Notes: generated by a model from the sequence alone, not told the origin. A stretch of DNA of 64,000 bases from Geminicoccaceae bacterium (GCA_039808865.1 JBDHTW010000014.1:12-64011), one strand, 5' to 3'; counted from the first letter of the stretch, positions 6,980 to 58,802 are shown. Numbers and translations are program-made.

Positions 6980-6989
6980 CGTCGCGTGA

Positions 6990-7016
6990 CCGGGGCGGCG
7001 ACATCCGCCGCCCCGG
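6990..7016 (+). terminator. Perfect 11-bp GC hairpin after dctP with no U-tract (mRNA-stabilising or attenuating element)
   Basis: CCGGGGCGGCG-ACATC-CGCCGCCCCGG read directly from sequence. Confidence 0.6.
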
Positions 7017-7043
7017 CGCCGCCGTCGACCAGAAGGAAGTCCG

Positions 7044-8780: not shown

Positions 8781-8798
8781 CACAAGGTGGACTTGCAG

Positions 8799-29754: not shown

Positions 29755-29939
29755 CGCGCCTCCACGCCCGGGATCGAGAAGGGGCTGCATTTGCGTCGGC
29801 GGCTGTGCTCGCCGGACGCGCCCGAAGGCTGGGTTTGGCGGGCGGCACGGTGTAGACGGCCGGCATACCGTCGTCCATGTGCACCTGCGTCACGGACGGT
29901 CCGTCGATGCGGCGCTTGCTGCGGGAGAGGAAACTCGAG

Positions 29940-31190: not shown

Positions 31191-31224
31191 GCCGCCGGCT
31201 GGCGAGGTCACGACCGGCCGAGGC

Positions 31225-32409: not shown

Positions 32410-32415
32410 GAGCTT

Positions 32416-33654
32416 CTAGAGCACCGTGGGCTCGGGAATGGGAATGATGAACCGACCGCCGCGGCTAGCGTAAATCGCCTGCTGGCCGATGATCTCCTCC
32501 TGGAAGTTCCAGGGCAGGATCAGCACGTAATCCGGCTGCCGCTCGAGCAGGGCTTCGGGGGGCAGGATCGGCAGGCGCACGCCCGGGATCCATTTGCCCT
32601 GCTTGTGCCGATTGCGGTCGACGACGAATTCCAGCGTCTCGGGACCGATACCGACATAGTTGAGCAGGATGGTCCCTTTGGCAGCCGCGCCGTAGCCGGC
32701 GAGGCTGCCGCCCTTGGCCTTGATCTCGCCCAGCAGCGCCTGCAATCGGTCCCGGATGGCCTCCACCCGGCGGGCGAAGCCCGCATAGTAGGCGAAGCCG
32801 TCCATGCCGAGCTCGTGCTCCTCGCGCAGCAGCGCGTCGACCGAAGGCTCACGCCGGGGCTGCCGCTCGACGAACACGCGCAGCGAGCCGCCGTGGATGT
32901 CGATCCGCTCGACCCGGTTCAAGAACAGCCCGTGCCGGCTGAACAGGCGGTCGAGCGCCATCACCGAAAAATAGCACAAGTGCTCGTGATAGATCGTGTC
33001 GAACTGGCCTTTGTCGATCAGGTCACGCACATAGTGCATCTCGAGGACGGCGAGACCGTCGTCCTTGAGCAGGGTCGCGATGCCCTGCACGAAGCCGTTG
33101 GTGTCCGCCACGTGCGCCAGCACGTTGTTGGCGTGGAGCACGTCCGCACGGCGGCCGCCGGCGGCAAGATCGTCGGCCAGTTCGCGCCCGAAGAAGGCCT
33201 GCAGACTCTCGACGCCCTTGGCCCGCGCCGCGGCGACGGGACCGGGGGTCGGATCGATGCCCAGCACCCGGATGCCGGCGGCGAGGTAATGCTGCAGCAG
33301 GTAGCCGTCGTTGCTCGCGAGCTCGATCACGAGACTGTCCGGGCCGAGGCCACGCTCCTCGATCCTGGCGGCGACGTTGCGCGCCGAATGCTGCACGAGC
33401 GCGTCGATCACCGACGAGAAGTAAGGATAGTCGGCGGCGAACAGCTCCTCGGGTGGCACGGTGTGCAGGATCTGCACCAGCGTACAGTCGTGGCAGAACG
33501 CCACGTCGAGCGGGTAGCGGGCCTCGGCGCGGTCGAGCGCGTCCGCGGCGATGAACGCGTCCGAGGGCGGCAGATCCCCGAGTGCGAGGAAGGTCTCGAG
33601 TCGATGGGAACCACAAGCGCGACAGGTCTCGATCGGCGCCACGCTGGACGTCAT
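32416..33654 (-). CDS. NDP-hexose C3-methyltransferase (TcaB9/KijD1 family), paralogue 1
   Basis: CRACG...CHDC, ELASNDG, NNVLAH, TIYHEH, YGAAAKG, VDRN..KQG. Confidence 0.88.
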
Positions 33655-34691
33655 GCGGCCTCGCGCAGATAGCGCAGACTGGCGCCGTCGACACGTCCGG
33701 CCGCCATCAGGTTCTTCAGATGCTGCACCCGCATCCAGCTCGGGCCGAAGAACTGCTCGGCGGTGACCTTGGCCCCACGATAGGCCTCGTAGATCTCCTC
33801 GATGCCGCGGCGCAGCGTCCACTGCGGCTCGTAGCTCGGGACCATGCGCCGGATCTTGTCGCAGTTCACGCGGTAGTTGCGGCGATCCGGGCTGGCGTCG
33901 CTGGCGAACGACACCGTGGCGCCCGGCACGATCTCGGCCACCATCTCGGCGACCTCGCGCACCCGGTAGTTCTCCGTGGTGGCACCGACGTTGAAGGCCT
34001 CGTCGTGCACCTGCTCGCGCGGCGCCTCGAGCACCGCCAGATAGGCGCGGGCGATGTCCTCGATGTGCACCAGCGGCCGCCACGGCATGCCGTCGCTCTT
34101 CATCGTCACGCTGCCGGTGGTGAAGGCATAGCCGACGAGATTGTTCACGACGAGGTCGGCACGGAGCTTGGCGGAGATGCCATAGGCCGTGCCGGCCCGC
34201 AGATAGACCGGCGTGAAGGTCGCATCGGCGAGCGGGCTGATGTCACGCTCGGCCAGGACCTTGCTCTCGGCGTAGGGGGTCACCGGGTTGAACGCGGCCG
34301 TCTCGTCGACGAAGCCGTCGGTCGAGGCGCCGTAGTTGCTGCAGGACGAGGCGAACACGAACCGGCGCACGCCGGCGGCCTTGGCCAGCCTGGCCAAGCG
34401 GGCCGCGGCCTGGTGGTTGACCTCGTCGGTCATGGCCGGGTTGAGATCGCCGAACGGATCGTTGGAGACCCCGGCCAGATGCAGGACGGCATCGAGGCCC
34501 GCGAGCATCGCAGGCGTCACGTCGCGCACGTCCTGCCAGTGCATCGGCACCACCGGTCGCGGCTGGCCGGGAAAGATGCACTCCGCAAACAGGCCGCTGT
34601 CGAGACCGGTCACCTCGTGACCAGCCTTCTGCAGCAGCGGAACGAGGACTTGGCCGATATAGCCGTCACTGCCGGTCACGAGCACACGCAT
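33651..34691 (-). CDS. NAD-dependent sugar epimerase/oxidoreductase (extended SDR)
   Basis: [28 protein letters not shown]. Confidence 0.88.
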
Positions 34692-34695
34692 CGGC

Positions 34696-35469
34696 TCAGC
34701 TCCAAATCTTCCACGGCGCTTCGCCGCTTTCCCACAGCTCGTCCAGCCGCGCCTTGTCGCGGACCGTGTCCATGCACTGCCAGAAGCCATAGTGCCGGTA
34801 GGCCATGAGCTGACCGTCGGCGGCCAGCCGCTCCAGCGGCTCGCGTTCGAAGGGGGTCAGGTCGTCGTCGATGTAGTCGAAGACGCCGGGTTCGAGCACG
34901 AAGAAGGCGCCGTTGATCCAGCCCTCGCCGGTCTGCGGCTTCTCGGTGAAGCTCGCGACCTTGTCGTCCTCGAGATCGAGACGCCCGAAGCGCGCCGGCG
35001 GCCTGACCGCCGTGACCGTGGCGAGCTTGCCGTGGGCGCGATGGAACGCCAGCAGCGCATGCAGGTCGACCGTCGAGACCCCGTCGCCCCAGGTCAGCAT
35101 GAAGGTGCTCTCGCCGAGATAGGGTCGCAGACGCTTGATGCGCCCGCCGGTCATCGAGCGCTGCCCGGTATCGACGAGATCGACCTTCCAGGACTGCTGC
35201 AGACCCGCCGCATGCGCGTCGACGGCACCGGAAGCGAAGTCGACCGTAAGATCACGATTCAAAAACCAGAAATCCATCATGTATTTTTTGATGTACTCGC
35301 CCTTGTAACCCAGAGCGATGGCAAACTCGTTGAAACCATAATGACTATAATGCATCATGATATGCCAAAGAATTGGCCGGCCACCGATCTCCACCATGGG
35401 TTTTGGTCTGACGGCGGTTTCCTCGGCCAAGCGAGAGCCGACACCACCGGCAAGTATACCGACCTTCAT
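34696..35469 (-). CDS. rfbF: Glucose-1-phosphate cytidylyltransferase
   Basis: [52 protein letters not shown]. Confidence 0.93.
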
Positions 35470-35914
35470 GAAACCTCCGATTCGACCTGCGGCGGGTAAA
35501 ATACTCATCGCATGGTCGCTACGGTCGATCAGGACTTACTGCGAAAGACACCCCGGCGCACCTGGATGGGGTGTAGATGTCTGCTGTCCAACGTCGCAAC
35601 CGCAACATATTGACGCGGCTCGGCCGACTATCATTTCCGCCTTGGACGCCAACGCTTGACGCGCATTAGCAATGATACAAGATGGTCCATCCGGCCCTGT
35701 CAATAGCCTTTACCGCAACTGCGTTGTCTGGTCGGGTGCGGTTGCTCCGGCAACACATCGGGCGCTCGGGCACCTTGCGGGTGCAATGACGATCACCCGA
35801 TGGCAAGGCTGTGGTTGTCGAAACGACACGGGCCTGCGAGTATGGAGCGGCGGTGCCGCCCTAGAAGGCCGCTCGCAGCCTCAGGACCTGCCGACGTCGC
35901 ATGATGCCATACCG

Positions 35915-37372
35915 ATGAGCCTCGCCAGATCGCTGACCTCGAGCATGGTCGTGCTGGCCGGCGGGCGCGTGCTGAGCATCCTGCTCGCCTTGGTCACCGT
36001 CGCGATGCTGACACGGGCGCTGGGCCCCGAGGATTTCGGCTATTTCCGCACCGCGATCGCCTATCTGAGCCTCGCCATGCTGATCGGCGGCTTCGGCCTC
36101 AACACGGTGGTGGTGCGCGAATTGGCGCGGGCCGAAGCCGACCAGCCGCGAATCCTGGGGAACGCGCTCGCCCTGCGGCTGACCCTGTCGGCAACGGCCA
36201 TCACCGTCGGCTGCCTGCTCGCCTGGCTGCTGCCGTTCGATCTCGATGCCCGCGCGTGCATTCTCGCCGGCAGCTTCGGCTTCGCCTGCTACGCCGCGCA
36301 CATGATGCTCGCGGGCTTCTTCCAGCAGCGGCTGAGACAGACCGGATCGGTGCTGGCCGAGATCACCGGTGCCGCGCTGCTGCTCGCCGCCGTCGCCTGG
36401 CTGCGGCGCAATGGTGCGCCGGTGGTCGACTTCGTGCTCGCCCAGGCGGTCGCGTACGTGGCGATGCTGGCCGTGTCCTGGGTGGCGGCCTGGCGGTTGA
36501 CGCCGTTCCGGCTCCGTGCCGAGCCGCCCGTCTGGCGCCGGCTGTTCGGGCGAGCGCTGCCGCTGGCAGGGGTCGATTGGCTCAATCTGGTCTATTCCCG
36601 CTCGGACACGCTGCTGCTGGCGCTCTGGGGCACGGCGGCGAGCGTCGGCCTCTACGGCGTCGCGGCCAAGATTTACGACACGTTCCTCGGCATCTCGATG
36701 CTGTTCGTCGGCATGGTCGGCCCGATCCTGGGCCGTCGTGCCCATGTCGATCCCGAGGGCTTCCGCAGCTTTCTTGCCACCGGCTGGACGCTCCTGATGG
36801 CGGGCGTGGTCGGAATCGGGCTGATGCTGTGGTCGTTCGCCCCCGAATTCATGTCGATCATCGCCGGCAGCGAATTCGTGGCCGGCGCCGCCGCGCTGCG
36901 CGTGTTCAGCCTGCTCATCGTCGTCGGACCGTCGCGGGTGCTGTTTCGCGACGTGACGACCATGCTCGATCTGCAACATCGGCTGCTGCCCGGATCGATC
37001 ATCGGCGCCGTGGTCGGCCTCGCCGCCTACGCCGTGCTCATTCCGAGGTTCGGCGCGGTCGGTGCGGGTTGCGCGCTGTTGCTGGCCGAGCTGACCGTGT
37101 GCATCCAGGCGGCTCTGGTGCTGATCGGCGCCGGGGCCACGCGCCTGGCCTTCCGGGCACCTCTGCTCGCGATCGGCTGCGGCCTGCTCGCCGCTTGGGC
37201 GATCGAGCTGCTGCGCGGGTTCGGCCTGCCCTGGCCCCTGCTCGCCGTTCTCGGTGGCCTGGGCTACCTCGCGCTGCTGGTGCTCACTGGCGTGCTGCAG
37301 CCTCGTGCATGGCTGCAGCTGGTCGTCGAGCGCCCGGCTGCCGCAGGCTTGGCCGGTGGGCCGCAGCCATGA
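35915..37372 (+). CDS. wzx: Polysaccharide flippase (Wzx/MATE-like)
   Basis: Many TM segments; RALGPEDFGY, DTLLL...VGLYGVA, LIPRFGAVGA motifs. Confidence 0.88.
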   Translation: MSLARSLTSSMVVLAGGRVLSILLALVTVAMLTRALGPEDFGYFRTAIAYLSLAMLIGGFGLNTVVVRELARAEADQPRILGNALALRLTLSATAITVGCLLAWLLPFDLDARACILAGSFGFACYAAHMMLAGFFQQRLRQTGSVLAEITGAALLLAAVAWLRRNGAPVVDFVLAQAVAYVAMLAVSWVAAWRLTPFRLRAEPPVWRRLFGRALPLAGVDWLNLVYSRSDTLLLALWGTAASVGLYGVAAKIYDTFLGISMLFVGMVGPILGRRAHVDPEGFRSFLATGWTLLMAGVVGIGLMLWSFAPEFMSIIAGSEFVAGAAALRVFSLLIVVGPSRVLFRDVTTMLDLQHRLLPGSIIGAVVGLAAYAVLIPRFGAVGAGCALLLAELTVCIQAALVLIGAGATRLAFRAPLLAIGCGLLAAWAIELLRGFGLPWPLLAVLGGLGYLALLVLTGVLQPRAWLQLVVERPAAAGLAGGPQP

Positions 37373-37460
37373 ATCGCGTCATCCACCAAGCTGTGCCCGA
37401 CTTGCCACGGCACGCCGGTGTAACGACGCCCGCGATCGTGACGGAAGGGTGAAGGACGCC

Positions 37461-38501
37461 ATGGCGACGGCTGACGTCTTCGGGGACTGCGCGCCGATCT
37501 TCGTCGTCGGTGCGGCACGCTCCGGGACCACGTTGATGCACCGGATGCTGCATGCCCATCCGGACATCGCGTTGATGGACGAGGCCGCATTCTTCGAGGG
37601 CATCTTGAAGGTACGGCCGGTGCTGCCGGACCTGCGCGCTCCCGGAGCGGTCGAGCGCTTCTTCGAGCTTCTGCCACGTATCCAGCACATCCAGCACTGG
37701 AGCGGGATGGACGAGGTCCTGGCCGACGTCCGCATCAGGCTGGCAGCCGATCCCGCGCCGAGCTACGGCCGCTTCTACTTCCTGCTGATGGACGCGTTGG
37801 CCCGGCAGAGCGGCGCCCGGCGCTGCGGCGACAAGACACCGGAGAACATCCGCTATCTGCCCGAGCTGGCGGCCATGTTCCCGCGCTGCCAGATCATCCA
37901 CATGGTGCGCGATCCGCGCGGCAACATCGCCTCGCGCTTGCGGCTCGACTGGGCGTCCAACGATATCCTGAGCAACGCCGTGAAGTGGAAGCTTGACGTC
38001 CGCGCCGGCCGCCGCTTCGGCCGGACGGCCCCGGCCGGCCGCTATCTCGAGGTCAAGTACGAAGAGCTGGTCGGTGCGCCGGAGGCGACGCTGCAGCGCG
38101 TGTGCACATTCCTCGGCGAGGCTTACCGGCCGGAGATGCTGCAGTTCTACGAGTCGAAATCGGTGCTGTTCAAGAACGAGCCGTGGAAGGACACGACCTT
38201 CGCGCCGGTGACGACGAACTATATCGAGACGTGGCGCAAGTCCTTGAGTCCGGCACAGCTCTTCTTGATCGAGCGTGTCGTCGGCAACGAGCTGCGCGAG
38301 TTCGGCTATGCCCTGTCGCCGTGGCGCGCCGTGGACGTCCCGGCTGCGGCCCCACAATTGGTTCGCGAGCTGGCGAGCTGGGTCGGTCACAAGCGGCGTG
38401 AGCGACGGCTGCGACGCGAGCAGCCCGAAGTTGAATTCTTCGTCGGCAATTCGTTGACGGCCAAGGTGCTGCAGCAGGTGCGTGGCCGGACGCCTTACTG
38501 A
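37461..38501 (+). CDS. PAPS-dependent sulfotransferase (Sulfotransfer_3-like)
   Basis: 5'-PSB motif GAARSGTT, GDKTP, 3'-PB motif MVRDPR, VKYEELV. Confidence 0.9.
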   Translation: MATADVFGDCAPIFVVGAARSGTTLMHRMLHAHPDIALMDEAAFFEGILKVRPVLPDLRAPGAVERFFELLPRIQHIQHWSGMDEVLADVRIRLAADPAPSYGRFYFLLMDALARQSGARRCGDKTPENIRYLPELAAMFPRCQIIHMVRDPRGNIASRLRLDWASNDILSNAVKWKLDVRAGRRFGRTAPAGRYLEVKYEELVGAPEATLQRVCTFLGEAYRPEMLQFYESKSVLFKNEPWKDTTFAPVTTNYIETWRKSLSPAQLFLIERVVGNELREFGYALSPWRAVDVPAAAPQLVRELASWVGHKRRERRLRREQPEVEFFVGNSLTAKVLQQVRGRTPY

Positions 38502-38727
38502 GCTGCGGCTGAACGCGCCCTTGATCGACGCGCGGTATCGATGCACGACCGTACTGGGTTCAGCTCTTGATAACAAGTCGGCGACGATCGGTCAGGCGAA
38601 GCTGTTTGCTACTCGGTTGCATCTTTTTCGCGCGGAGCAACCCGTGGTAAGGGCTTTGCCAATTGGTCGGGCCGTGCGCGCATGGCCAAAGCTGGCGACC
38701 CCGCCAAGCCATTGAGGAGCGTGAGCA

Positions 38728-39672
38728 TTGCCCCGTGTGAGCATCGGCATCCCGGTCTTCAACGGCGAGAATTTTCTGGAGGACGCGATCCGCTCGGTTC
38801 TGGCGCAGAGCTACCAGGACCTGGAGCTGGTGATCGCGGACAACGCGTCGACGGACCGGACGGCGGAGATCGGGCGGGACTTTGCCGCCAGCGACGGTCG
38901 GGTCCGCTACCTGCGCAACGAGCGCAACCTGGGCGCGGCGCCGAACTACAACCTGGTCTGGGAGCAGAGCCGCGGCAGCCTGTTCAAGTGGCTGTCGCAC
39001 GACGACCGGATTTTGCCGGAGTTCGTGGCGCAGACGGTGGCGGCGCTGGACGCCGAGCCGGACGCGGTGCTGGCCAACGGCCTGGTCGAGTACATCGACG
39101 CCCAGGGCAAGGTCTTCGCGCACTATCCGAGTGTCCTCGGCGCGGCCGGTGGCCCGTCGCCGGCGCAGCGCTTCGCCGCCATGGTGCTGCGCTCGCATTC
39201 GTGCGTGGACTTCTTCGGCATGGTGCGGCGCGAGGCCATGCAGGGCTCGCTGCTGCATGCGAGCTTCCACGGCGCCGACCGGGCGTTCCTGGCGCAGATG
39301 GCGCTGCGTGGCCGGCTGCTGCAGCTGCAGCAGCCCCTGGTGCAGATGCGCGAGCACCAGAGCCGCTACACCCGCAGCAAGGTCGACGCCCGGACCCGGC
39401 AGCTCTGGCACGACAGCAGCGCCAAGCGGGCACCTCGACTGCCGACGCTGCATCTGTACCGTCAGTACCTGCACATGGTGCAGCAGGAGCAGCTGAGCCC
39501 GGCGGAACGGCGGCGCTGTATGCAGGTGCTGGCGCGCTGGTGGTTCAACAACTGGAACGCGGTCCGGGTCGGCACCGACGCACTGGGTCTGGTGCTGCCG
39601 GGAATCGTCGGCCATGCCGAACGCGTGAAGACCCGCGTGTTCGGATTGGCCCCGGGACACTTCGTCCGCTGA
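38728..39672 (+). CDS. GT2 family glycosyltransferase
   Basis: VSIGIPVFNGE, DNASTD, NLGAAPN, WLSHDD (DxD-like); TTG start after GAGGAG. Confidence 0.92.
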   Translation: MPRVSIGIPVFNGENFLEDAIRSVLAQSYQDLELVIADNASTDRTAEIGRDFAASDGRVRYLRNERNLGAAPNYNLVWEQSRGSLFKWLSHDDRILPEFVAQTVAALDAEPDAVLANGLVEYIDAQGKVFAHYPSVLGAAGGPSPAQRFAAMVLRSHSCVDFFGMVRREAMQGSLLHASFHGADRAFLAQMALRGRLLQLQQPLVQMREHQSRYTRSKVDARTRQLWHDSSAKRAPRLPTLHLYRQYLHMVQQEQLSPAERRRCMQVLARWWFNNWNAVRVGTDALGLVLPGIVGHAERVKTRVFGLAPGHFVR

Positions 39673-39728: not shown

Positions 39729-40226
39729 CTACGCGCGCTCTGCGTCCGCCGGCGCGGCGAGCCTGTCTTCACCACGGCCGAGCTTGTCGGGCAGCGGCTG
39801 CTGCAGCGGGACGAACTCCAGCGCCACGGAGTTGATGCAGTAGCGATGCCCGGTCGGTGGCGGGCCGTCGGGGAAGACGTGACCCTGGTGGCTGCCACAG
39901 CGTGCGCACAAGGTCTCGATGCGGATCATCCCGTAGCTGGTATCGCGCTTCAGCTGCACATGGCCTTCGGCATAGGGTGCATTGAAACTCGGCCAGCCCG
40001 TGCCGCTCTCGAACTTGGTCGTGGCGGCGAACAGGGGCAGGCCGCAGAGCTTGCAACAGTAGGTCCCCGCCTGCTTGTTGCCCAGCAGCGTGCCGCAGAA
40101 CGGGGCTTCGGTGCCATGGCTCAAGAGCACACGACGCTCCTCGGCGCTGAGCGCCGCCTCGAGAGTCCGGCGCTGCTGCGGTGAGGGCGGGGTGAGATCG
40201 AAGCCGGCGGTGACGGCGTCTGACAT
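39729..40226 (-). CDS. msrB: Peptide-methionine (R)-S-oxide reductase
   Basis: GTEAPF, CKLCG and CARCG Zn pairs, GWPSF, GHVFPDGP, RYCINS. Confidence 0.95.
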   Translation of the reverse strand: MSDAVTAGFDLTPPSPQQRRTLEAALSAEERRVLLSHGTEAPFCGTLLGNKQAGTYCCKLCGLPLFAATTKFESGTGWPSFNAPYAEGHVQLKRDTSYGMIRIETLCARCGSHQGHVFPDGPPPTGHRYCINSVALEFVPLQQPLPDKLGRGEDRLAAPADAERA

Positions 40227-40244
40227 GGGGAACGTCCTTCTGGG

Positions 40245-40865
40245 CTAGCTTGCGCGGCGGGCGGCAGCATCCTTCAGCCGGTCGCCGTGCACTTGGCGCA
40301 GCTTCTTGACCTTGGGTTCGGCGACGGCACGGATGTAGGGCTGTTCGGGATTCCGCGCCGCATAGCCGTGATGATAAGCCTCAGCCTCGTAGAAGGCGGT
40401 CAGCGGCTCGAGCGTCGTCTGCACCTTGGCGTCGAAGATGCCGGCCCGATCGATCTGCCGGATATAGGCCGCCGCCACGTCGCGCTGCCCCTCGTCGGCA
40501 TAGAAGATCGCCGAGCGGTACTGGCGGCCGACATCATGGCCCTGGCGATCCTTCTGGGTCGGATCGTGCGCGATCGAGAAGAACATCTTCAGGATTTGGC
40601 CCATGCTGATCCGGGCCGGATCATAGGTGATCTCGATCGCCTCCGCATGGTCGGTGCGACCACCGCACACCGTGCGATAGTCGGCGGTCTCGGCGGTGCC
40701 GCCGGCATAACCCGGACGCACGGCGAGCACACCGTCGAGCTGCGCATAGACGGCCTCGGTGCACCAGAAGCAGCCGCCGGCGAGAACCAGCTTCGCCGGC
40801 GCCGGCCCGGCCGGCAGATCCTGCTCGGGATCGGGAAACGACCAGGGATCGATCTTCAGCGCCAT
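40245..40865 (-). CDS. msrA: Peptide-methionine (S)-S-oxide reductase
   Basis: GGCFWCTE, GYAGG, DHAEAI, HDPTQ.DRQG.DVG.QYRSAIF, AEAYH. Confidence 0.95.
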   Translation of the reverse strand: MALKIDPWSFPDPEQDLPAGPAPAKLVLAGGCFWCTEAVYAQLDGVLAVRPGYAGGTAETADYRTVCGGRTDHAEAIEITYDPARISMGQILKMFFSIAHDPTQKDRQGHDVGRQYRSAIFYADEGQRDVAAAYIRQIDRAGIFDAKVQTTLEPLTAFYEAEAYHHGYAARNPEQPYIRAVAEPKVKKLRQVHGDRLKDAAARRAS

Positions 40866-41040
40866 GGCTTCCTCCGTACAACCGGCTGGGCATGCAGATG
40901 GCGATGCGGCACCGCGTTTTGCAGTGGCGGCCATGCCGGCGCAATCTCCCATGCGCGTGAGGACGATGGCGGATGCGCTTATCAAGACCGCCATCGGCAG
41001 CTAAAGGCATCCAACAAGCTGCCGCAAGGACGAGGGAAGC

Positions 41041-42030
41041 ATGCGCTCGATCAGGATCGTGTCGGCTGCGGCGGCGCTGACGCTGGCGTGCCTGCTGCCA
41101 CAGCCGGGCTTCGCCGACGACAGCTCCGTGCCCGAGCAGATCGTCGACACCATGAACCAGCTCTGGGGCCGGCATCCCGGCATCCGCGCCAACCATGCCA
41201 AGGGGATCGTGGTCGAAGGCAGCTTCGTCCCCAGCGCCGAAGGTGCGAAGCTGAGCACGGCCATCGTGTTCAAGAGCGGAACGATCCCCGTGATCGCCCG
41301 GTTTTCGGACGCGACGGGCCTGCCCACGATCGCGGACGGCAGCGCCAACGCCAACCCGCACGGGTTCGCCGTCCGCTTCCAGCTGCCGGACGGCGGCGAG
41401 ATGGATGTCGTCACCAACTCGCTGGCATTCTTTCCGGTGGCCACCGGCGAGGAGTTCCGCGATCTGCTGCAGGCGGTGGCGATGACCGGACCGGATGCCG
41501 CCAAGCCCACGCCGGTCGAGCGCTTCATGGCGGCACACCCGGCCGCGCCGCAGGCCTTCGCCAGCGTGGCCACGCCCACGAGTTTCGCGCGCGAGATCTA
41601 CAACGGCGTCAACGCCTTCGTGTTCGTCGACGCTGCGGAGAAGCGGCAGCCGTTCCGCTTCCAGCTGGTTCCGGTCGAAGGCGCGGAACATCTGAGCGCC
41701 GCCGAAGCGGCCAAGCGGGGTCCGGATTTTCTGACCGAAGAGCTGCGCGCGCGCCTGGCCAAGCAGCCGGTGGCGTTCCGCCTGCTCGCCCAGCTCGCCG
41801 AGCCCGGCGATCCGATCGACGACGCGACCAAGCCCTGGCCGGCCGAGCGCCGCGAGGTCGATCTCGGCACGATCACCCTGACCAAGCCGGTGGCCGACAA
41901 CGCGGCGGCCGAGAAGGAGCTGCTGTTCCTGCCCAGCAACCTCACCGACGGCATCGAACCCTCGGACGACCCGTTGATCGACACCCGCGTCCAAGCCTAT
42001 GCGGTGTCGTTCGACCGACGCTCGCAGTGA
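41041..42030 (+). CDS. Catalase-related peroxidase (SrpA-like), exported
   Basis: Signal peptide; RANHAKG (distal His), ARFS, TNS (distal Asn), proximal R..AY..S..RR. Confidence 0.88.
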   Translation: MRSIRIVSAAAALTLACLLPQPGFADDSSVPEQIVDTMNQLWGRHPGIRANHAKGIVVEGSFVPSAEGAKLSTAIVFKSGTIPVIARFSDATGLPTIADGSANANPHGFAVRFQLPDGGEMDVVTNSLAFFPVATGEEFRDLLQAVAMTGPDAAKPTPVERFMAAHPAAPQAFASVATPTSFAREIYNGVNAFVFVDAAEKRQPFRFQLVPVEGAEHLSAAEAAKRGPDFLTEELRARLAKQPVAFRLLAQLAEPGDPIDDATKPWPAERREVDLGTITLTKPVADNAAAEKELLFLPSNLTDGIEPSDDPLIDTRVQAYAVSFDRRSQ

Positions 42031-42048: not shown

Positions 42049-42471
42049 TCAGCCCGGCGGCGCTTCCCTCCACCCGAGTTGCGCCATGATCTCGGCGGCA
42101 GGCTCGGCCAGGTACGAGGGAATCGGCTCGAGCTCGATCCGGCCGCCATCGGCGCGGATATGGAGCAGCAGGTCGATGTCGGCGGGGCGATCGCGCGTCT
42201 TGCTCGCAGGATGCTCCCGGTCGCGGCCGAGCGCGAGTTCGATCGCGATGCAGTCTGCCTTGCAGGCCGCCGGCTCGAGCCCCGTCGGGACGAACGCGCA
42301 GAAATTGACGAACGGCCGCTGGCTTTCCATGCCGACCGGCTCGGTCACATGGAAACGGCTGAGCAGGATCTCGCCGAAGCGTTGCCGCAGATGCTCGACG
42401 ATCCGTCGCGCGTTGCGCTGCGGATCGAGATTGCTGCCGATGCCGAGGACATAGCCCGGAGCGAGGTGCAT
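42049..42471 (-). CDS. folK: FolK/HPPK-like pterin pyrophosphokinase (short, divergent C-terminus)
   Basis: LGIGSNL, S.F..TEPVG, FVN, IELALGRDR, RPADIDLL (two Mg-binding Asp). Confidence 0.78.
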   Translation of the reverse strand: MHLAPGYVLGIGSNLDPQRNARRIVEHLRQRFGEILLSRFHVTEPVGMESQRPFVNFCAFVPTGLEPAACKADCIAIELALGRDREHPASKTRDRPADIDLLLHIRADGGRIELEPIPSYLAEPAAEIMAQLGWREAPPG

Positions 42472-42491
42472 CGCGGATCGGCTCCGGCCGC

Positions 42492-43001
42492 TCAGCGCAC
42501 TTCGAGCGCGGTCAACTGCCAGATCGACTTGAAGTTCTGCGAATCGGCCTGGAACTCGGGATACTGATCACTCGGCAGGATGACCCATAGCGGCCCGCGG
42601 TCCCGAAGCCGCAACGGTTTGCCATCCTGCTCGAGCGCGATCAGGATCGGGTAGCGCCGCATTTCGTCGACATCGAGCTCGATCTGATAGCCGTTGGCGG
42701 CGATCGCGCGCAGCTTTTGACCGGTGGCGCCCACGGCGTCGAGCACCTTGCTCATGACGATGCCCCGGAACGTGGGCTTGCCGTCGGTGTAGGGCGTCGA
42801 GGTGGTGAGATCGCTCAACCCGAGCGCCTCGAACATCGCGCGATCGAACTCGGCCTTGCCGGGCGCGTTCGTGTTGGCGATCGCGCCACTGACCGTGAGC
42901 AGCACCGGTCCGGTGGGCGTCGCCAGCGCCTGGGCCCGGGCGTCGTGCCCCAGGACCGTGCAAGCGGCGAGAAACATCAGCGCGAAAAGGCGTGCCATCA
43001 T
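42492..43001 (-). CDS. PruR-like periplasmic pterin-binding protein (Moco-less sulfite-oxidase fold)
   Basis: Signal peptide ending ARA; LLTVSG.I, FDRAM.EAL, T.TPY, AANGY, RDRGPLW, SIWQL..LEV; no Cys in the mature protein. Confidence 0.78.
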   Translation of the reverse strand: MMARLFALMFLAACTVLGHDARAQALATPTGPVLLTVSGAIANTNAPGKAEFDRAMFEALGLSDLTTSTPYTDGKPTFRGIVMSKVLDAVGATGQKLRAIAANGYQIELDVDEMRRYPILIALEQDGKPLRLRDRGPLWVILPSDQYPEFQADSQNFKSIWQLTALEVR

Positions 43002-43058
43002 CCCCACAGTCCCTTTAGAGGGTTGTTGATCAAAGACATCCCTCGCCAGCACCGGCAT

Positions 43059-45644
43059 TCATGCGCTGCGCTCGAGCTGCTGCATCGCGGTGCGACTGAT
43101 TTGAACCACCCGTCCGAGCTCGACCACCAGGTCGGCCACGTCCTCGCCCCGGTCGGCCCGCTCCTCGATCATGCTCGCCAACACCGACACACGGGCAAGA
43201 CCAAAACTGCCCGCCGTTCCCCGCAGGCGATGCGCCAGCTGCAGTAGCCGTTCCCGATCACCCAGAGCTTTGAGCAATAGATCGAAACTTTCAACTGCAC
43301 CGTCCAAGCCACGGCTCATCAGCTTGCGGAACACCTGGGGCGGCACGTTGCGGGCCATGCCTTCGAGCAGCTCGCGGTTGAGCAACGGCTGGTCACTGGC
43401 CATGCTCGGCTCGGTCTCGGGCGACGGCGCGGTCGGGTCGGCCGCCGCGATCTCGGCAAGGGCGGCGAACAGATCGCGCCAGACGATGGGCTTGGTCAGG
43501 CACAGATTCATGCCTGCGGCGAGATAGCGCTCGCGCTCGGCGGTCATCACGTTGGCGGTCAAGGCCAGGATCGGCACATGCGCGGCGGGGCCAGGCAGAC
43601 GACGAATGCGCCGCGTCGCCTCGATGCCGTCCATGACCGGCATCTGCACGTCCATCAGCACGACGTCGAACCGCTCCTCGGCAGCCAGCCGCACGGCGGC
43701 ATTGCCGTCACCTGCCACCACCACCTCGTGCCCGCGGCGGGCGAGCATCTCGGCGAGCAACTCGCGGTTGACGTCGACGTCATCGACGACCAGGACCCGC
43801 AGATGACGGGTGGCCGTTGGCTCGAGATTGCCACGCTGGGCCGCCGCAACGGCGTCGCCCAATCCAAGCGTCAGCTCGAACCAGAACAGGCTGCCCTTCC
43901 CGGGCTCGCTCTCGAGCCCGATCTTGCCGCCCATCGCCTCGACCAGAGACTTGCAGATCACGAGGCCGAGGCCGCTGCCACCATAATTGCGCGTGGTCGA
44001 GCTGTCGGCTTGCACGAAAGGTTGAAACAGCTCCGACTGCCGTGCCCGCGGTATACCGATGCCGGTGTCGCGCACCTCGAAGCGCAGGCGGGTGGTCTCG
44101 CCCTGCGTCGCGAGCTGATGGACGGAAAGCGTGACCGTGCCCCGGGCGGTGAACTTGAGCCCGTTGCCGACAAGGTTGACCAGCACCTGCCGCAGCCGCG
44201 TCGGGTCGCCGCGCACGACCAAGCTTGTCGACGTGATCAGCATGACCCGCAGCTCCAGGCCACGCTCGGCCGCCTGGGGTGCGAGCAGGGAGCGGACCTG
44301 CTCCAAGATCTCGACGATCGGGAAATCGATGCGCTCGAGATCGAGATGCCCGGCCTCGATCCGCGAGAAGTCGAGAATGTCGTTGATGATGCTGAGCAGG
44401 TGACGACCCGAGGTGCGGATCGTATCGACGTAGCGCCGTTGCGTCACCCCCAGCTTCTCGACCGCCAGTAGGTCGGCCATGCCGAGGACGCCCGTCATCG
44501 GTGTCCGGATCTCGTGGCTCATCGCGGCGAGGAACTCGGATTTGGCCCGGTTCGCCCGGTCGGCCATCTCGGCCAGACGGCGCATTTCCTCGGCCTGCTG
44601 CTCGAGCCGCGTCGTGGCCGCGGTCAGTTCGAACTCGCGCCGCTTGAGTTCGCTGATGTCGGTGCACACGCTGACGAAACTGCCGTCCTCGGTCAGCCGA
44701 TCCGAGACCAACAGCCAGCGGCCGTCGTCGAGATGCTCCTCGACGGAACTCACTCGGCTCTGCCGTTCATCCGGGTTGCTGTCCACGGCCGTCCGATAGC
44801 GAAGCAACGGTGGCCTGGACTGCTCCGGGTAGAACTCCTGGTAGCGCTGGTTGCAGAGCACGAGCTTCGCCTTCGCGTCGAAGATCGCGAACCCCTCGCT
44901 GATGCTCTCGATCGCCTGACGCAGCTGCAGCCGCGATCGCTCCGCGTCCCGCCGCGCGGCGGCGGTAAAATGGAGCAGCCGGTGCGTCTGCCACGTCGAC
45001 CGCAGCGCTCCCACCACGACGAGGACCGCCGCGGCGAGGAACAGAACCACGAACATGAGGACATGACGGGTCACGTCCTGGTTCACGACACGCAGGTCTT
45101 CTTGCTGTTCCAGGTTGCTCCGCAGATCCGTGACGGTCAGCCTCTGGACCCGCTCGAGGAACGGCGCGAACTCATGGTAAAGCGCACCGGCGCCGGCCAT
45201 GTCGCCGAAGCGCAGCGCGGCGACGATCGAGTCCGACGCATCGAGCAGGCCGCGCAGACCTTCGATCAGATCCATCGTCTCCGGCTGATCGGCGATCGCG
45301 GCGCCGAGACGGCCGCTTCTGTACATGTCGACCCGGCTCCACAGCAGGTCGAAGCGCTTCTGCAGTTCGGCCGCATCGAACGACGACGTGCCACTGCCAT
45401 ACTGCAGGACCGCGAGCAGAAAGCGCTCCATCTCGAGTTCGAGCTGGGCGGAATTCCAAGCCTGGTTGACGGAGAACTTGACGTTCAGACGATCCTGGAG
45501 CTGTTCATAGCGCGTGATCGAGAACACCAGCAGGCCGGCCAAGGCCAGCACGAGCGCGAACAGCACGACGGACCATGCCGTTGCGGTACGTCGCAGCCGC
45601 TGAATGCTCGCACCTTGATCAGCTTCAGCCGACGTAGTGATCAT
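43059..45644 (-). CDS. Membrane hybrid histidine kinase: TM-periplasmic DcpA-like domain-TM-PAS-HisKA-HATPase-REC-Hpt
   Basis: TM1 about aa 24-43; W-x7-E and RFDLLWSR; TM2; PAS (EGFAIFD..LVLCN...[10 protein letters not shown]); SHEIRTPM; NLVGN..KFT, DTGIGI, GSGLGL; REC (DD..N, MDVQMP, KP); Hpt AHRLRGTAG. Confidence 0.9.
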
Positions 45645-45907
45645 GAATGTCGTGGCTTCGCCCGCGGCACGAAAGTCGCTGCGCGCCCAGGCCTCCCGAG
45701 GGCCAGGTTGCCAGCATCCTGGCCGCATCCGCGCAATCTACTACAGATTGCGGCGTTTCCTTCTTCGACAGAGCCGATCCGAGTAAACCGTAGAGGTGAT
45801 GGGAATCAAGCTGTTTCTATCATGTGTACATCTTCGCGCACGGCGATCCGGGTGCTTTCTCCACGCGCCGCGTCCGGCCACCATCCCGTCATTCCGGAGC
45901 TGTTCCG

Positions 45908-46522
45908 GTGACAGGTGAGCCGGGCTGGCACGCGTATTACGCGGCGACCGACGGCAGGCCGCCGCGGCCGACCCTGCTGCGCGCGTTGGCGGGATTCTCG
46001 GATGCATGCCCGGCCCCGGGACTCCCGGCACTGCTCGCGGCCGACCTCGGCTGCGGCATCGGACGCGATACGCTGGTGCTGCTGCGCGCCGGCTGGCGGG
46101 TCTGGGCGCTGGACGGGCAGGCGGACGCGCTCGCGGAACTGGAGCGCCGAGCCGCCGTCGAAGGGCTGGTCGGCCTCGAGACGGTGCTCGGCCGCTTCGA
46201 GGACACGACCGTGCCGTCCTGCGACCTGATCAATGCCTCGTTCTGCCTGTTCGCCTGTGAGCCGGCTGCATTCAGCAGGGTCTGGTCCGGCCTGCGTGCC
46301 GCCCTACGGCCAGGAGCACGCTTCGCCGGTCAGCTGCTCGGACCGCGCGACAGTTGGGCTGGAAGATCCGATACCACGATCGTCGATCGGGAGACGCTGG
46401 ATGGCATGCTGGCGGGGCTGCGCGTCGAGCATCTCGAGGAGGAGGAGAGCGACGCCGTGACGCCGCGCGGCGAGGCGAAGCATTGGCACATCTGGCACGT
46501 CAATGCGCACCGTCCGCTATGA
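45908..46522 (+). CDS. Class I SAM-dependent methyltransferase (TehB-like)
   Basis: AADLGCGIGRD, WALDG, GRFED; GTG start after GGAG. Confidence 0.82.
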   Translation: MTGEPGWHAYYAATDGRPPRPTLLRALAGFSDACPAPGLPALLAADLGCGIGRDTLVLLRAGWRVWALDGQADALAELERRAAVEGLVGLETVLGRFEDTTVPSCDLINASFCLFACEPAAFSRVWSGLRAALRPGARFAGQLLGPRDSWAGRSDTTIVDRETLDGMLAGLRVEHLEEEESDAVTPRGEAKHWHIWHVNAHRPL

Positions 46523-50849: not shown

Positions 50850-52430
50850 ATGCTTCGTGAATCGAGCTGGCGCAGGCGGGCGAGATGGTTCCGGTGCGCG
50901 ATCGCGGCCATGGCGGCCGGCACGGCCGTCCTGCCGCCGCCCGACGCCCGGGCGGCCAGCGGCGATCCCGCGCCGACGGCCTCGCCATTGTCTCCGGCCA
51001 CGCCCGCCTATTTCCGCTTCCTCTATCCGATGTACGCCAAGGCCCCCCGGCCGGCGGAAATCTACCGCCAGGGCGGCATCCCGGCCATCGTGCCCAAGCT
51101 CGAGGTCGACTGGGACCCGTTCGGCAGGGTCGGCACCTACCTGCCGAACGGCCCGGTGCAGACCGCCGCCAACGCCTTTTTCCAGGCGCTGGGAACCAAC
51201 GGTCGCTCCTGCGCCACCTGCCATCAGCCGTCGAGCGGCATGGGGCTGAGCTTGCGCAACATCAAGGCGCGGTTCAACGCGACCGGCGGGAAGGACCCGC
51301 TGTTCGCCCCGGTGGACGGCGCCAACTGCCCGCCAGCCGCCCCGCCGGGCTCCACACCGACGACCAATCGCGCGGCCTACAGCGTCATGCTCGACCGCGG
51401 CGCCGTGCGCATCCCGCTACCCTGGCCGCCCAGGGATGCCGGCGGCATGGCCAAGCCGGTCGAGTTCGACATCACGATCACGCCGCAGGCGGACAAGCCG
51501 GGGTGCAACGTCGACTCAACCTACGGGGTCACCGCCGGCTACGTCTCGGTCTATCGGCGGCCGCTGATGGCGGCCCAGATGAACTTCAAGACGCTGCGTG
51601 CGAACGGTAAGGGTCCGATTCTCCCCGGCAGCCTGATGTGGGACGGCCGTGAGCCGTCCCTGGAGCAGCAGGCGATCAACGCGACCCTCGGCCACGCGCA
51701 GGCGACCCATGCCCCGACCACGGCCGAGCTTCGCCAGATCGTCCAGTTCCAGAACGGCATCTTCAGCGCGCAACTGATCGATGGGGCGGCGGGCCGGCTG
51801 GATGCGCAGGGTGCCAAGGGCGGGCCGGTGCACCTTGCCAAGCAGGTTCCCGAGCAGGCCGTGGGTCCGACCTTCGACGAGTACCAACGCTGGGCGGGCG
51901 GTGCGGCGAAGGCGCGCTCGATCGCGCGCGGTCAGGACATCTTCAACAACCGGCTGTTCATCATCCAGAACGTCGCCGGCTTCAACGACCGCGTCGATGT
52001 CGGCAATCCCGCGGTCGGCTCCTGCAGCACCTGCCACAACGTCGCCCATGCCGGGTCCGATGCGCTGGCCGGGCCGCAGCGCGACATCGGCATCGGCGGC
52101 ACGGCGCAGTTCATCGGCGGCCCGAAGCCGGCAGCCAGCCTGCCGCGCTTCACGCTGACCTGCCATGCCGACGCCATACCGCATCCCTATCTCGGGCGCG
52201 GACCGATCGTGACCAACGATCCCGGCATGGCGCTGCTGACCGGCAAGTGCGCCGACATCGGCAAGTTCACGCTGCCGCAGCTGCGCGCCCTGGCGGCGCG
52301 GGAGCCCTATTTCCACGACGGCAGCGCGCGCACCTTGAAGGCCGTGGTCGACGTCTACAACCAGCGCTTCAACGTCGGCCTGACGGCCCAGGACGAAGAG
52401 GATCTCGTCAGTTTTCTGGCCGCACTCTAG
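50850..52430 (+). CDS. Exported di-haem cytochrome c of the bCcP/MauG superfamily
   Basis: Two CxxCH (CATCH 51210-51224, CSTCH 52023-52037), [28 protein letters not shown]...VVDVYN; N-terminal signal. Confidence 0.82.
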
Positions 52431-53050: not shown

Positions 53051-53467
53051 TCAGTAGATCATGCCCAGCTCGAGCTGGGCCTCCTCGGTCATCATCGACG
53101 GATTCCACGGCGGATCCCAGACGATCTTGACCTCGCAGCCCTGCACGCCCTCGACGGCACCGACCTTCAGCTCGACCTCGCCCGGCAGCGATTCGGCCAC
53201 CGGACAGTTCGGCGACGTCAACGTCATCTCGAGCAGGACACGGTCGTCGTCCTCGATGTCGATCTTGTAGACCAGCCCCAGCTCGTAGATGTTCACCGGG
53301 ATCTCGGGGTCGTAGATCGTCCGCAGCGCCTCGATGATCCGCTCGCCCAGCTGCTCGACCTCGGCCTGCCGCGCGCGCTCGGCCTGCGCGGCCGGCTCGT
53401 CGGCCAGGATCGCCTCGGCCCGCTCGAGGGCGGCGTCGGCGCCGGTCACCGTTGCGAAATCCGTCAT
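53051..53467 (-). CDS. sufT: SUF system Fe-S cluster maturation protein (DUF59)
   Basis: IYDPEIPVNIYELGLVY, MTLTSPNCP, WDPPW. Confidence 0.9.
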   Translation of the reverse strand: MTDFATVTGADAALERAEAILADEPAAQAERARQAEVEQLGERIIEALRTIYDPEIPVNIYELGLVYKIDIEDDDRVLLEMTLTSPNCPVAESLPGEVELKVGAVEGVQGCEVKIVWDPPWNPSMMTEEAQLELGMIY

Positions 53468-54723
53468 TGCAGCATCTCCGCTACTCGCCTGAGGCTGGCG
53501 ACGAAGGCATCGATATCGTCGTGGCTGGTGTAGAGGCCGACCGACGCCCTGGCGCTGGCGGCCAGGCCCAGCCGATCGTGCAGCGGCATGGCGCAGTGAT
53601 GGCCGGTGCGCACCGCGATCCCGTCGAGATCGAGAAGCGTGCCGATGTCCTGTGGATGCACGCCGTCAACGGCGAAGGTCAGCACGCTGCACTTGTCCCG
53701 GGCGGTGCCGATGACGCGCACGCCCGGCACCTGGTTGATCGCCCGGGTGGCATAGGCCAGCAGCTCGCCTTCGTGCGCGGCGATCGCCTCCAGGCCCAGC
53801 CCCCGGACATAGTCGATCGCGGCACCCAGAGCCACGATCCCGGCGATGTCGGGCGTGCCGGCCTCGAACTTGAAGGGGATCTCGTTCCAGGTCGTCCCGG
53901 CGAAGCTCACCCGCTCGATCATGTCGCCGCCGCCCTGATAAGGCGGCATCGACTCCAGATGGCCGGCCTTGCCGTACAGCACGCCGACGCCGGACGGGCC
54001 GTAGAGCTTGTGCCCGGAGAAGGCGAGGAAGTCGGCGTCCAGCTCCTGCACGTCGACCGGGATGTGCTGCACGGCCTGGGCCGCGTCGATCAGGATCGGA
54101 ATGCCCCGCGCATGCGCGATCCGGACCAGCTCATGCACCGGGTTGACCGTGCCCAGCACGTTGGACACCCACGCGACCGCGATCATCCGGGTCCGCTCGC
54201 TGATCCGCTCGACGAAGGCGTCGAGCAGCAGCTCGCCCGCATCGTCGACCGGTGCCGCGACGACCTTGGCCCCGGCGGTGGCGGCGGCCATCTGCCACGG
54301 CACGATGTTGGCGTGGTGCTCCATCTCGGTCACCAGCACCTCGTCGCCGGGCTGCAGGCGAGGCCGCAGGAACGAGGCCGCGACCAGGTTGATGGCCTCG
54401 GTGGCGTTGCGGGTGAAGATGATCTCGCGCCAGTCGGCGGCGCCGAGGAAGCGCTGCACCTTGCGCCGGGCCGCGTCGTCGGCCGCCGTCGCGCGCTGGC
54501 TGAGATCGTACACGCCGCGGTGGATGTTGGCGTAATCCTGCTCGTAGAAGCGCTTGAGCGTGTCGATGACCACCGCCGGCTTCTGCGCGCTGGCCGCGGT
54601 GTCGAGATAGACCAGCGGCCGGTCGTTCATCCGCGTCGCCAGGATCGGGAAATCGCGGCGCACCCGCTCCACGTCGTAGGCCGGCGCGGCCGCGGCCTGT
54701 GGACGGGCCGCCATCGTGTTCAT
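53464..54723 (-). CDS. sufS: Cysteine desulfurase (group II)
   Basis: YLDTAAS, ANIHRG, EMEHHAN, FSGHK (PLP Lys), RTGHHCA. Confidence 0.95.
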   Translation of the reverse strand: MNTMAARPQAAAAPAYDVERVRRDFPILATRMNDRPLVYLDTAASAQKPAVVIDTLKRFYEQDYANIHRGVYDLSQRATAADDAARRKVQRFLGAADWREIIFTRNATEAINLVAASFLRPRLQPGDEVLVTEMEHHANIVPWQMAAATAGAKVVAAPVDDAGELLLDAFVERISERTRMIAVAWVSNVLGTVNPVHELVRIAHARGIPILIDAAQAVQHIPVDVQELDADFLAFSGHKLYGPSGVGVLYGKAGHLESMPPYQGGGDMIERVSFAGTTWNEIPFKFEAGTPDIAGIVALGAAIDYVRGLGLEAIAAHEGELLAYATRAINQVPGVRVIGTARDKCSVLTFAVDGVHPQDIGTLLDLDGIAVRTGHHCAMPLHDRLGLAASARASVGLYTSHDDIDAFVASLRRVAEMLQ

Positions 54724-56051: not shown

Positions 56052-56053
56052 GG

Positions 56054-56836
<783 letters not shown>

Positions 56837-56863
56837 GATCCGATCCGTACTCCTGAGCCGTCC

Positions 56864-58309
<1,446 letters not shown>

Positions 58310-58343
58310 CTCTACCACTCCGTCACGTTCCAGCGCCGTCGCG

Positions 58344-58802
58344 TCACGACCGCGCGTTCACCACAGGCTGCTCGCCGGGGAGCAGGAAAGCCGCCGGGAT
58401 CGTCAGCGCCATCTCGGCCAAGGTGACCTCGCTCAGCGCATCGCGGATCGCACCGTTGATCCGCTCCCAGTTCGCCCGCGCCGGGCACAGGCTGATGATG
58501 CTGCAATCGCCGGGCGTCGGTTCGCTGCACGAGGTGATCGCGATCGGCCCGTCCAGCGCTTCGATCACCTCGGCCACCGTGATCGCGGCCGCTGTGCGGG
58601 CGAGACCGTAGCCACCGTGCGCGCCGCGGTGCGAAACCAGCAGCTCGGCCCGCGTCAGCAGCTTCAGGACCTTGCTGGTCATCGGCTGCGGCACGTTCGT
58701 CGCCACCGCGATCTCGGGCGCCGTCTGCTGGCGGTCGGGGTGCCGAGCCAGATGCGACGCGACGACGATGCCATAGTCGGCGAGCTTGCTGAGCCTGATC
58801 AC
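58344..58802 (-). CDS. Rrf2-family SUF regulator (IscR-like)
   Basis: [23 protein letters not shown], three Cys in C-x7-C-x5-C. Confidence 0.9.

Follow-up and report, generated by a model that had tools for sequence, protein, structure and literature searches.

What is a relative of the folate enzyme HPPK doing beside a pterin receptor and a sensor kinase? The question is raised by three minus-strand open reading frames (ORFs) that occupy positions 42049-45644 of a 64,000-nucleotide stretch of DNA from a Geminicoccaceae bacterium (GCA_039808865.1, JBDHTW010000014.1:12-64011; this whole stretch is referred to below as the window) and encode, in this order, a hybrid histidine kinase, a PruR-like protein and an HPPK-like protein. 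Our analysis indicates that the locus is probably a PruR-DTB pterin-sensing system in which the kinase gene comes first and the third gene encodes a divergent protein of the HPPK fold that would act in a signalling-pterin branch. To our knowledge, PruR pterin signalling is understood in a single organism, with cyclic diguanosine monophosphate (c-di-GMP) as its output, and the kinase-coupled DTB class is large and predicted. In the window itself a PruR-DTB system can be recognised, accompanied by a single unusual gene; together with its relatives, the locus ties the sensor genomically to probable ligand-making genes, namely those for FolE, a FolM/PruA-like reductase and an atypical HPPK-fold paralogue.

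The PruR-like receptor and the hybrid kinase

Compared with all PDB sequences, the PruR-like protein finds its best matches in the PruR family's four solved 'pterin binding proteins' (7KOS, E 2.6e-35; 7RKB, 2e-33; 7KP2, 2e-18; 7KOM, 8e-17), whereas sulfite oxidases are reached with E values of about 0.8. In PruR of Agrobacterium tumefaciens the pterin pocket consists of N102, Y104 and W160, and a P-W motif replaces the molybdenum-binding cysteine (Greenwich et al., 2024, PMC11194511). The window protein, which contains the sequences NGY, RDRGPLW and WQL, has the corresponding triad at N103, Y105 and W161, and among 89 PruR homologues the Trp is present in all (89/89), the Tyr in 88/89 and the Asn in 64/89. 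Where the A. tumefaciens protein has P-W the window protein reads P-Y, with Tyr at this position in 27 of the 89 homologues. No cysteine is present in the mature protein, the sole Cys lying within the signal peptide, which is more likely to be of type I; assignment as a lipoprotein, on the strength of an L-A-A-C sequence resembling a lipobox, was rejected because this Cys is absent from several close homologues. Judged by the PDB comparison, the protein is homologous to PruR and is no catalytic enzyme of the sulfite oxidase (SUOX) or MsrP type, in line with the original prediction, which had described it as PruR-like and devoid of a cysteine to bind the molybdenum cofactor (Moco).

The kinase carries two hydrophobic segments (residues 24-44 and 193-215, from hydropathy) that enclose a predicted periplasmic stretch of ca. 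148 residues. Its Pfam matches are PAS_7, HisKA, HATPase_c, Response_reg and Hpt, which include the full domain set for the His-Asp-His phosphorelay predicted at the outset, with no match to GGDEF or EAL; TorS is the best full-length NCBIfam model (436 bits, below its cut-off). In the periplasmic stretch, W63 (codon at 45456-45458) and E71 form a W-x7-E (WX7E) motif, and an RFDLLWSR motif is also present. The Agrobacterium reference locus used for comparison (L075) encodes a PruR that is 100% identical to the 7KOS sequence and a DcpA of 644 residues with W40 and E48, as published. BLASTP aligns the N-terminal regions of the kinase and of Agrobacterium DcpA over 112 residues (E 2e-8, 29% identity), placing W63 on W40, E71 on E48 and RFDLLWSR on RLDIMLSR, and phmmer comparison of the kinase sensor domain with DcpA is reciprocal, at 1e-5 to 1e-8. 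By these alignments the periplasmic domain of the kinase is homologous to that of DcpA, a kinship that had likewise been proposed beforehand.

Relatives of the sensor domain were collected with a HMMER scan of kinase residues 1-225 against 1.84 billion representative proteins, which returned 321 at E<=1e-3; conservation and architecture were counted in the best 80 of the 321. In their alignment W63, Q67, E71, D99, W102 and S103 are nearly invariant and R104 is invariant, and because of this near-invariance the sensor motifs are more than chance resemblances. The outputs attached to the domain vary, with HisKA in 65 of the 80 relatives, a receiver (REC) domain in 27, Hpt in 13, and GGDEF together with EAL in 5; one sensor module therefore serves both kinases and diguanylate cyclase/phosphodiesterases.

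A pterin receptor that drives a phosphorelay instead of c-di-GMP turnover belongs to a published, predicted class. In PruR-DTB systems, PruR is paired with a DcpA-type periplasmic domain on a TorS- or BaeS-like kinase, and such systems make up ~29% of 5,595 unique pruR-regulator pairs (Greenwich et al., 2024, PMC11194511); a 2026 review, which names WP_011045932.1 of R. pomeroyi as an example, depicts the PAS, HisKA, HATPase and REC domains of a DTB protein (PMC13259868). The novelty claimed for the three-gene system in the original prediction is thereby lost for receptor and kinase; it is retained for the link to the HPPK-like gene, which has not yet been described. With the published class the window shares a PruR homologue that carries the pterin-binding residues, a WX7E sensor between two transmembrane segments, the PAS-HisKA-HATPase-REC series and adjacent, co-oriented genes. 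It differs in that the kinase gene precedes pruR, an HPPK-like gene follows pruR and no response regulator gene was found in the window; the kinase also has an extra Hpt domain, as do the 13 relatives counted above. The locus is new in its kinase-first order, in its atypical HPPK paralogue and in the wider link between pterin synthesis and PruR sensors that it represents.

Two further systems invite comparison. The Agrobacterium PruR-DcpA pair resembles the window in its receptor (E 2.6e-35) and in the homologous WX7E partner domain, and the ligand is presumably, as in the PruR-DcpA-PruA pathway, a reduced pterin from a reductase of the FolM/PruA type, whereas the output domains are those of a phosphorelay in the window and GGDEF-EAL in Agrobacterium. 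In E. coli TorT-TorS, a periplasmic binding protein likewise controls a hybrid kinase with REC and Hpt domains, but neither TorT nor the sensor domain of TorS is related to its counterpart in the window, and the ligand is trimethylamine N-oxide.

The three co-oriented genes and their motifs were all found as first described, with spacers of 57 nucleotides (kinase/pruR) and 20 nucleotides (pruR/HPPK-like) when start codons supported by homologues are used. Thus the longest kinase ORF (43059-45728) would give 889 residues and the ATG at 45644 gives 861; the latter is the start used by homologues and fits the closest of them (P0178, 867 residues), which aligns 1-225 to 1-225. The longest pruR-like ORF (42492-43058) is similarly shortened by the ATG at 43001 to 169 residues, matching homologues of 169-170, and the HPPK-like ORF has 140 residues. 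A promoter and terminator scan returned nothing above chance and no terminator-like site in either spacer; one terminator-consensus match lies inside the kinase coding region, a count equal to the shuffled expectation. The sequence of the locus is present in sludge, activated-sludge, biofilm and indoor metagenomes, and metatranscriptome contigs match portions of all three genes, the pruR and kinase pieces at 99-100% identity. Many short matches at 44056-44087 were set aside as conserved HATPase motifs of other organisms.

The HPPK-like protein and its gene neighbourhoods

The third gene product matches the Pfam HPPK model (PF01288) with 55.4 bits (cut-off 25.7) and falls just short of the cut-off for NCBIfam folK (TIGR01498; 51.1 versus 54.1 bits). 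Its AlphaFold2 (AF2) model has a predicted local distance difference test score (pLDDT) of 93.8, and the top 48 Foldseek matches of this model are all HPPK structures, with TM-scores up to 0.73; in sequence the protein is distant from the canonical enzymes (best PDB E 8e-4). For the mapping of the active site, the reference was an E. coli FolK sequence whose residue numbering agrees with the published one and which matches E. coli folK at 100% identity. Like E. coli FolK (PDB 1HKA and others; TM-score 0.72), the HPPK-like family keeps the pterin site (T42, N55, with the conservative exchanges of Y53 for Phe and F123 for Tyr), both Mg-binding aspartates (D95, D97), and E77, R82, R84, R92 and E130. 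It differs from FolK on the nucleotide side of the active site, where a deletion of 6-7 residues takes out H115, Y116 and R121, and, again throughout the family, R110 is replaced by Leu and W89 by Thr, and T112 varies. Loop 3 exceeds that of FolK by 2-3 residues and is highly conserved (GRDRxHPxxKTRDRPADID). The family is a tight one, with an invariant LGRDRxHPxxKTRDRPADID loop. Most members also carry a C-terminal extension of ~35 residues, which the Geminicoccaceae forms, including the window copy, lack.

In Azospirillum the HPPK-like gene coexists with an ordinary folK. Canonical FolK, with LEIPHPRxAERAFVL intact, is encoded on chromids of A. brasilense, A. argentinense, A. ramasamyi and strain B510. 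Chromosome-sized contigs carry the HPPK-like copy, and no such copy was found on the Azospirillum replicons with canonical FolK. The HPPK-like protein is on this evidence a divergent paralogue distinct from canonical FolK, at least in Azospirillum. Because residues of the ATP site are missing and Azospirillum has this separate canonical enzyme, a reaction other than that of HPPK would be at least as likely for the protein. Duplicated FolK ('FolK2') and clusters with folM-like genes were noted earlier (de Crecy-Lagard et al., 2007, PMC1971073); that paper differs from the present analysis in containing neither a link to PruR/DcpA-type sensors nor a loss of ATP-site residues.

The company kept by the family was surveyed in 66 loci from species-representative genomes. 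A gene for a short-chain dehydrogenase/reductase (SDR) stands directly after the HPPK-like gene in 64 of the 66, mostly in convergent orientation. In the four proteobacterial examples scanned, this SDR matches the NCBIfam model for dihydromonapterin reductase (FolM) best, scoring 221-238 bits (cut-off 249); the best matches of a Bacteroidia example are other pteridine-reductase-like models, and the pteridine-reductase signature TGX3RXG is present in all three SDRs whose N-termini were inspected. FolE is encoded nearby in 15/66 loci and FolB in 28/66, the FolB cases having the layout plsY, folB - HPPK-like, SDR (Methylophaga, Permianibacter and others).

These genes are also associated with PruR-type sensors, in several forms. 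In two Geminicoccaceae metagenome-assembled genomes (MAGs; L001, L002) and a metagenome contig (L109), the kinase, pruR and HPPK-like genes are followed by those for the SDR and FolE, and the presence of a FolK-like gene next to the receptor-kinase pair, as originally noticed, is thus conserved in sister genomes. In 12 genomes of Azospirillum and relatives (L004-L015, ~4900-9300), pruR, a non-hybrid DTB kinase of ~535 residues and folE are co-oriented and tightly spaced, and the HPPK-like gene, with its convergent FolM-like SDR, diverges from this set. A JGI contig has, in order, HPPK-like, SDR, FolE, a major facilitator superfamily (MFS) transporter, pruR and a large gene that is truncated where the contig stops. 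At another locus (L110, 6169-10245) a DcpA-type GGDEF-EAL gene lies directly upstream of HPPK-like/SDR; there, no PruR is encoded within 9 kb and tblastn detects no PruR remnant. In a Lichenihabitans MAG, pruR is divergent from a folE-dcpA-like pair. The reductase and FolE genes thus adjoin in relatives of the window locus, whereas at the Agrobacterium and Brucella pruR-dcpA loci none of the pterin-synthesis genes of the HPPK-like, SDR or FolE type is found within 4 kb. The link between the HPPK-like family and PruR sensors recurs, but within a limited set of lineages.

From the PruR side, the best 80 of 405 PruR loci in species-representative genomes were examined, a sample that leans to close relatives and in which the Azospirillum-type loci were not found again. 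A gene with a DcpA-type domain stands directly downstream of pruR in 76 of these 80. The kinase lies upstream of pruR in the window, an order common to L001 and L109, and the sole clear kinase-first case in the 80-locus survey is a Geminicoccaceae MAG; the contig of its sister MAG cuts the kinase. An apparent upstream regulator in another locus (L146) proved to be an overlapping-ORF artefact.

Several members of the HPPK-like family have transporter or regulatory genes close at hand. In Benzoatithermus (L070:3718-8525), genes for a resistance-nodulation-division (RND) membrane fusion protein and an ACR_tran permease end at or overlap the HPPK-like start, and at a second locus (L069:4944-8486) an RND permease gene does so alone. 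These RND genes, and the MFS gene between FolE and pruR on the JGI contig, are possible candidates for pterin exporters. A copy in Aeromonas caviae (L193, NZ_AP026896.1) is 41% identical, adjoins a FolM-like SDR and is divergent from a kinase/response-regulator pair; its 4.9-Mb replicon is entered in PLSDB as a plasmid but is evidently a chromosome.

Proposed mechanism and alternative readings

By analogy with Agrobacterium PruR-DcpA (PMC11194511), the secreted PruR-like protein would bind a reduced pterin in the periplasm and, so loaded, would dock on the DcpA-type domain of the kinase, which carries the WX7E and RFDLLWSR motifs. Docking would alter the autokinase or phosphatase activity of the kinase. 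Phosphoryl groups would be handed from the HisKA histidine to the REC aspartate and then to the Hpt histidine, and from there to a response regulator whose gene lies beyond the 64-kb window. In the cytoplasm the HPPK-like protein may act on a pterin, together with a FolM/PruA-like reductase, and so contribute to the reduced pterin that is excreted and sensed, as its genomic context suggests. Since the family keeps company with a FolM/PruA-like reductase, and in many loci also with FolB or GTP cyclohydrolase I, it most likely works in a branch that makes a reduced, non-folate pterin sensed by PruR-type receptors. The near-universal reductase partner therefore suggests production of the ligand rather than its consumption. 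If the protein were a true HPPK, it would pull 6-hydroxymethyl-dihydropterin towards folate and could reduce the signalling pool, which is the tuning role suggested in the original prediction.

A more far-reaching form of this proposal, which we regard as unlikely, is that the HPPK-like protein is no pyrophosphokinase but a missing enzyme of signalling-pterin synthesis, that with the FolM/PruA-like reductase and FolE it forms a 'signal pterin' module joined to PruR sensors in several lineages, and that the abutting RND and MFS genes encode pterin exporters. The missing enzyme could, for example, be a phosphatase acting on dihydroneopterin or dihydromonapterin triphosphate, or could catalyse another step on a phosphorylated pterin. 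According to the 2026 review, the pathway phosphatase is unidentified and no pterin efflux system is known (PMC13259868). The conserved neighbours offer testable candidates for a phosphatase (HPPK-like), an exporter (RND/MFS) and a methyltransferase (TehB-like, see below), and Azospirillum, because it is genetically tractable, is the easiest place to test the link between sensor and pterin synthesis.

A number of observations weigh against the mechanism proposed here for the three genes. The family occupies a plsY-folB-folK position in gammaproteobacteria such as Methylophaga, Permianibacter and their relatives, and plsY also lies ~4 kb from the locus in the window, so that the placement may be inherited synteny. 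An HPPK-like gene is near PruR in 2 of the best 80 PruR loci, making the link rare from that side, and in Benzoatithermus flavus, the closest cultured relative, pruR and its kinase are on a different contig from HPPK-like/SDR/FolE; pruR is there followed by an 855-residue kinase with an architecture like that of the window kinase. The window copy has neither a reductase partner nor the ~35-residue C-terminal extension. A phmmer search with the kinase REC domain against window ORFs of at least 70 residues found the kinase alone, and hence neither a cognate response regulator nor a stand-alone receiver protein in the 64 kb; at DTB loci elsewhere, NtrC-type or GerE-type regulators and polysaccharide genes are close by. 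Finally, a single contig bridges the pruR/HPPK-like junction (42384-42498), and since the RNA label of its source run was guessed, it argues weakly for co-transcription of the two genes.

The first three of these points would suit a reading that keeps the PruR-DTB pair but makes the HPPK-like protein an ordinary folate FolK, left in place by inherited plsY-folK synteny and without a tie to the sensor, and public sources do call members of the family HPPK. Set against this are the occurrence of the link in at least four gene arrangements, across Geminicoccaceae, Azospirillaceae and metagenomic contigs, the co-oriented FolE gene directly behind the DTB kinase in the 12 Azospirillum-type loci, the separate canonical FolK of Azospirillum and the absence of the ATP-site residues, and we give such a reading a minor chance. 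The missing partners of the window copy could instead mean that it is a decaying remnant, functionless since a rearrangement removed the reductase and FolE: synteny breaks 18 nucleotides past its stop codon, the SDR and FolE are absent from the entire window, and the protein is shorter than most members. Decay is nonetheless improbable by a wide measure, for the ORF is intact with every family-invariant residue present, the AF2 model is confident (pLDDT 93.8), the GC content at third codon positions (0.84) resembles that of the adjacent genes, a 99%-identical copy occurs in other metagenomes, and L001 and L109, which retain SDR and FolE, have a similarly short C-terminus. Least probable of all, to the point of being nearly negligible, is that the small protein catalyses a reaction as a molybdoenzyme of the SUOX/MsrP type and that the kinase senses something else. 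A Pfam Oxidored_molyb match of 22.3 bits, under the cut-off of 24, and the MsrA and MsrB genes 1-2 kb distant speak for it; a mature protein without cysteine, a length of 169 residues, too short for a full SUOX enzyme, the conserved PruR pterin triad and E values of about 0.8 for PDB sulfite oxidases versus 1e-35 for PruR speak against it. The original interpretation is upheld in part. It came through scrutiny of the three matters that could have undone it, namely likeness of the small protein to Moco enzymes or MsrP, a kinase domain unrelated to DcpA and a folK-like neighbour that is not conserved; its novelty fails for the receptor-kinase pair, and the role it gives the FolK-like gene is conjectural.

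Surroundings of the locus in the window

The positions of the three genes, their domains and motifs and the nearest neighbours are collected in Table 1.

Table 1. Coordinates of the locus and of adjoining genes in the 64,000-nucleotide window.
Feature	Position	Strand	Basis
Hybrid sensor histidine kinase, DTB type, 861 residues: TM1, DcpA-like periplasmic domain, TM2, PAS, HisKA, HATPase, REC, Hpt	43059..45644	-	Pfam, NCBIfam
Kinase, transmembrane segment 1 (TM1)	45513-45575	-	Hydropathy
Kinase, periplasmic DcpA-type sensor domain, residues 45-192	45069..45512	-	Hydropathy, homology
Kinase, WX7E motif, W63...E71	45432..45458	-	Aligned on DcpA W40/E48
Kinase, RFDLLWSR motif, residues 97-104	45333..45356	-	Aligned on DcpA RLDIMLSR
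Kinase, transmembrane segment 2 (TM2)	45000-45068	-	Hydropathy
Kinase, HisKA phospho-acceptor domain, residues 367-432, SHEIRTP H-box	44349..44546	-	Pfam PF00512, 81 bits
Kinase, HATPase_c catalytic domain, residues 479-593	43866..44210	-	Pfam PF02518, 106 bits
Kinase, receiver (REC) domain, residues 617-729	43458..43796	-	Pfam PF00072, 94 bits
Kinase, Hpt domain, residues 788-843	43116..43283	-	Pfam PF01627, 29.6 bits (cut-off 24.6)
PruR-like periplasmic pterin-binding protein (predicted), 169 residues	42492..43001	-	PDB 7KOS match
PruR-like, signal peptide, residues 1-23	42933-43001	-	Hydrophobic N-terminus, A-R-A site (sequence inspection)
PruR-like, pterin triad N103/Y105 and W161	42687-42695 and 42519-42521	-	Mapped on A. 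tumefaciens N102/Y104/W160
HPPK-fold paralogue ('HPPK-like'), 140 residues	42049..42471	-	Pfam HPPK, AF2, Foldseek
HPPK-like, Mg-binding D98/D100 (predicted)	42172-42180	-	Active-site mapping
TehB-like S-adenosylmethionine-dependent methyltransferase, divergent from kinase	45824..46522	+	Pfam; same place in L001, L109
Secreted catalase-related protein	41041-42030	+	
MsrA	40245-40994	-	
MsrB	39729-40226	-	

The window is collinear with L001 through pyrB, pyrC, an AI-2E-family transporter gene, plsY, the TehB-like methyltransferase gene, the kinase gene, pruR and the HPPK-like gene, after which synteny ends. Next in L001 and L109 come the reductase and FolE. The window, an exception in its own clade, has in their place the secreted catalase-related gene, its stop codon 18 nucleotides from that of the HPPK-like gene, then MsrA/MsrB and then a polysaccharide cluster. 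A search for a FolM-like SDR, FolE and FolB found none anywhere in the 64 kb. It is probable that a rearrangement just past the HPPK-like gene replaced the reductase and FolE by the catalase-like gene, MsrA/MsrB and the polysaccharide cluster. The oxidative-stress genes (39729-42030) occupy the place of the reductase and FolE in sister genomes; that they lie beside a sensor whose ligand is prone to oxidation may be coincidental.

The polysaccharide biosynthesis cluster (28462-39672) comprises two GT4 glycosyltransferases, a methyltransferase, an NAD epimerase, a Wzx-like flippase, a sulfotransferase and a GT2 glycosyltransferase, and two other PruR-DTB loci (L073, L074) likewise neighbour polysaccharide export genes; the cluster is a possible output of the kinase. 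On the other side of the locus, the TehB-like methyltransferase gene is conserved beside the kinase gene in L001 and L109, and A. tumefaciens makes 2'-O-methylmonapterin. This 2'-O-methylated monapterin has been reported with no methyltransferase named for it (PMC13259868). A tie between the TehB-like enzyme and monapterin methylation is speculative, and its membership in the pterin-sensing system is uncertain. Further along the window lie a di-haem cytochrome c peroxidase/MauG-like gene (50850-52430) and a suf Fe-S assembly operon (53051-58802) with two SufB/SufD-family genes and genes for a SufS-like aminotransferase, an FeS_assembly_P protein and an Rrf2 regulator.

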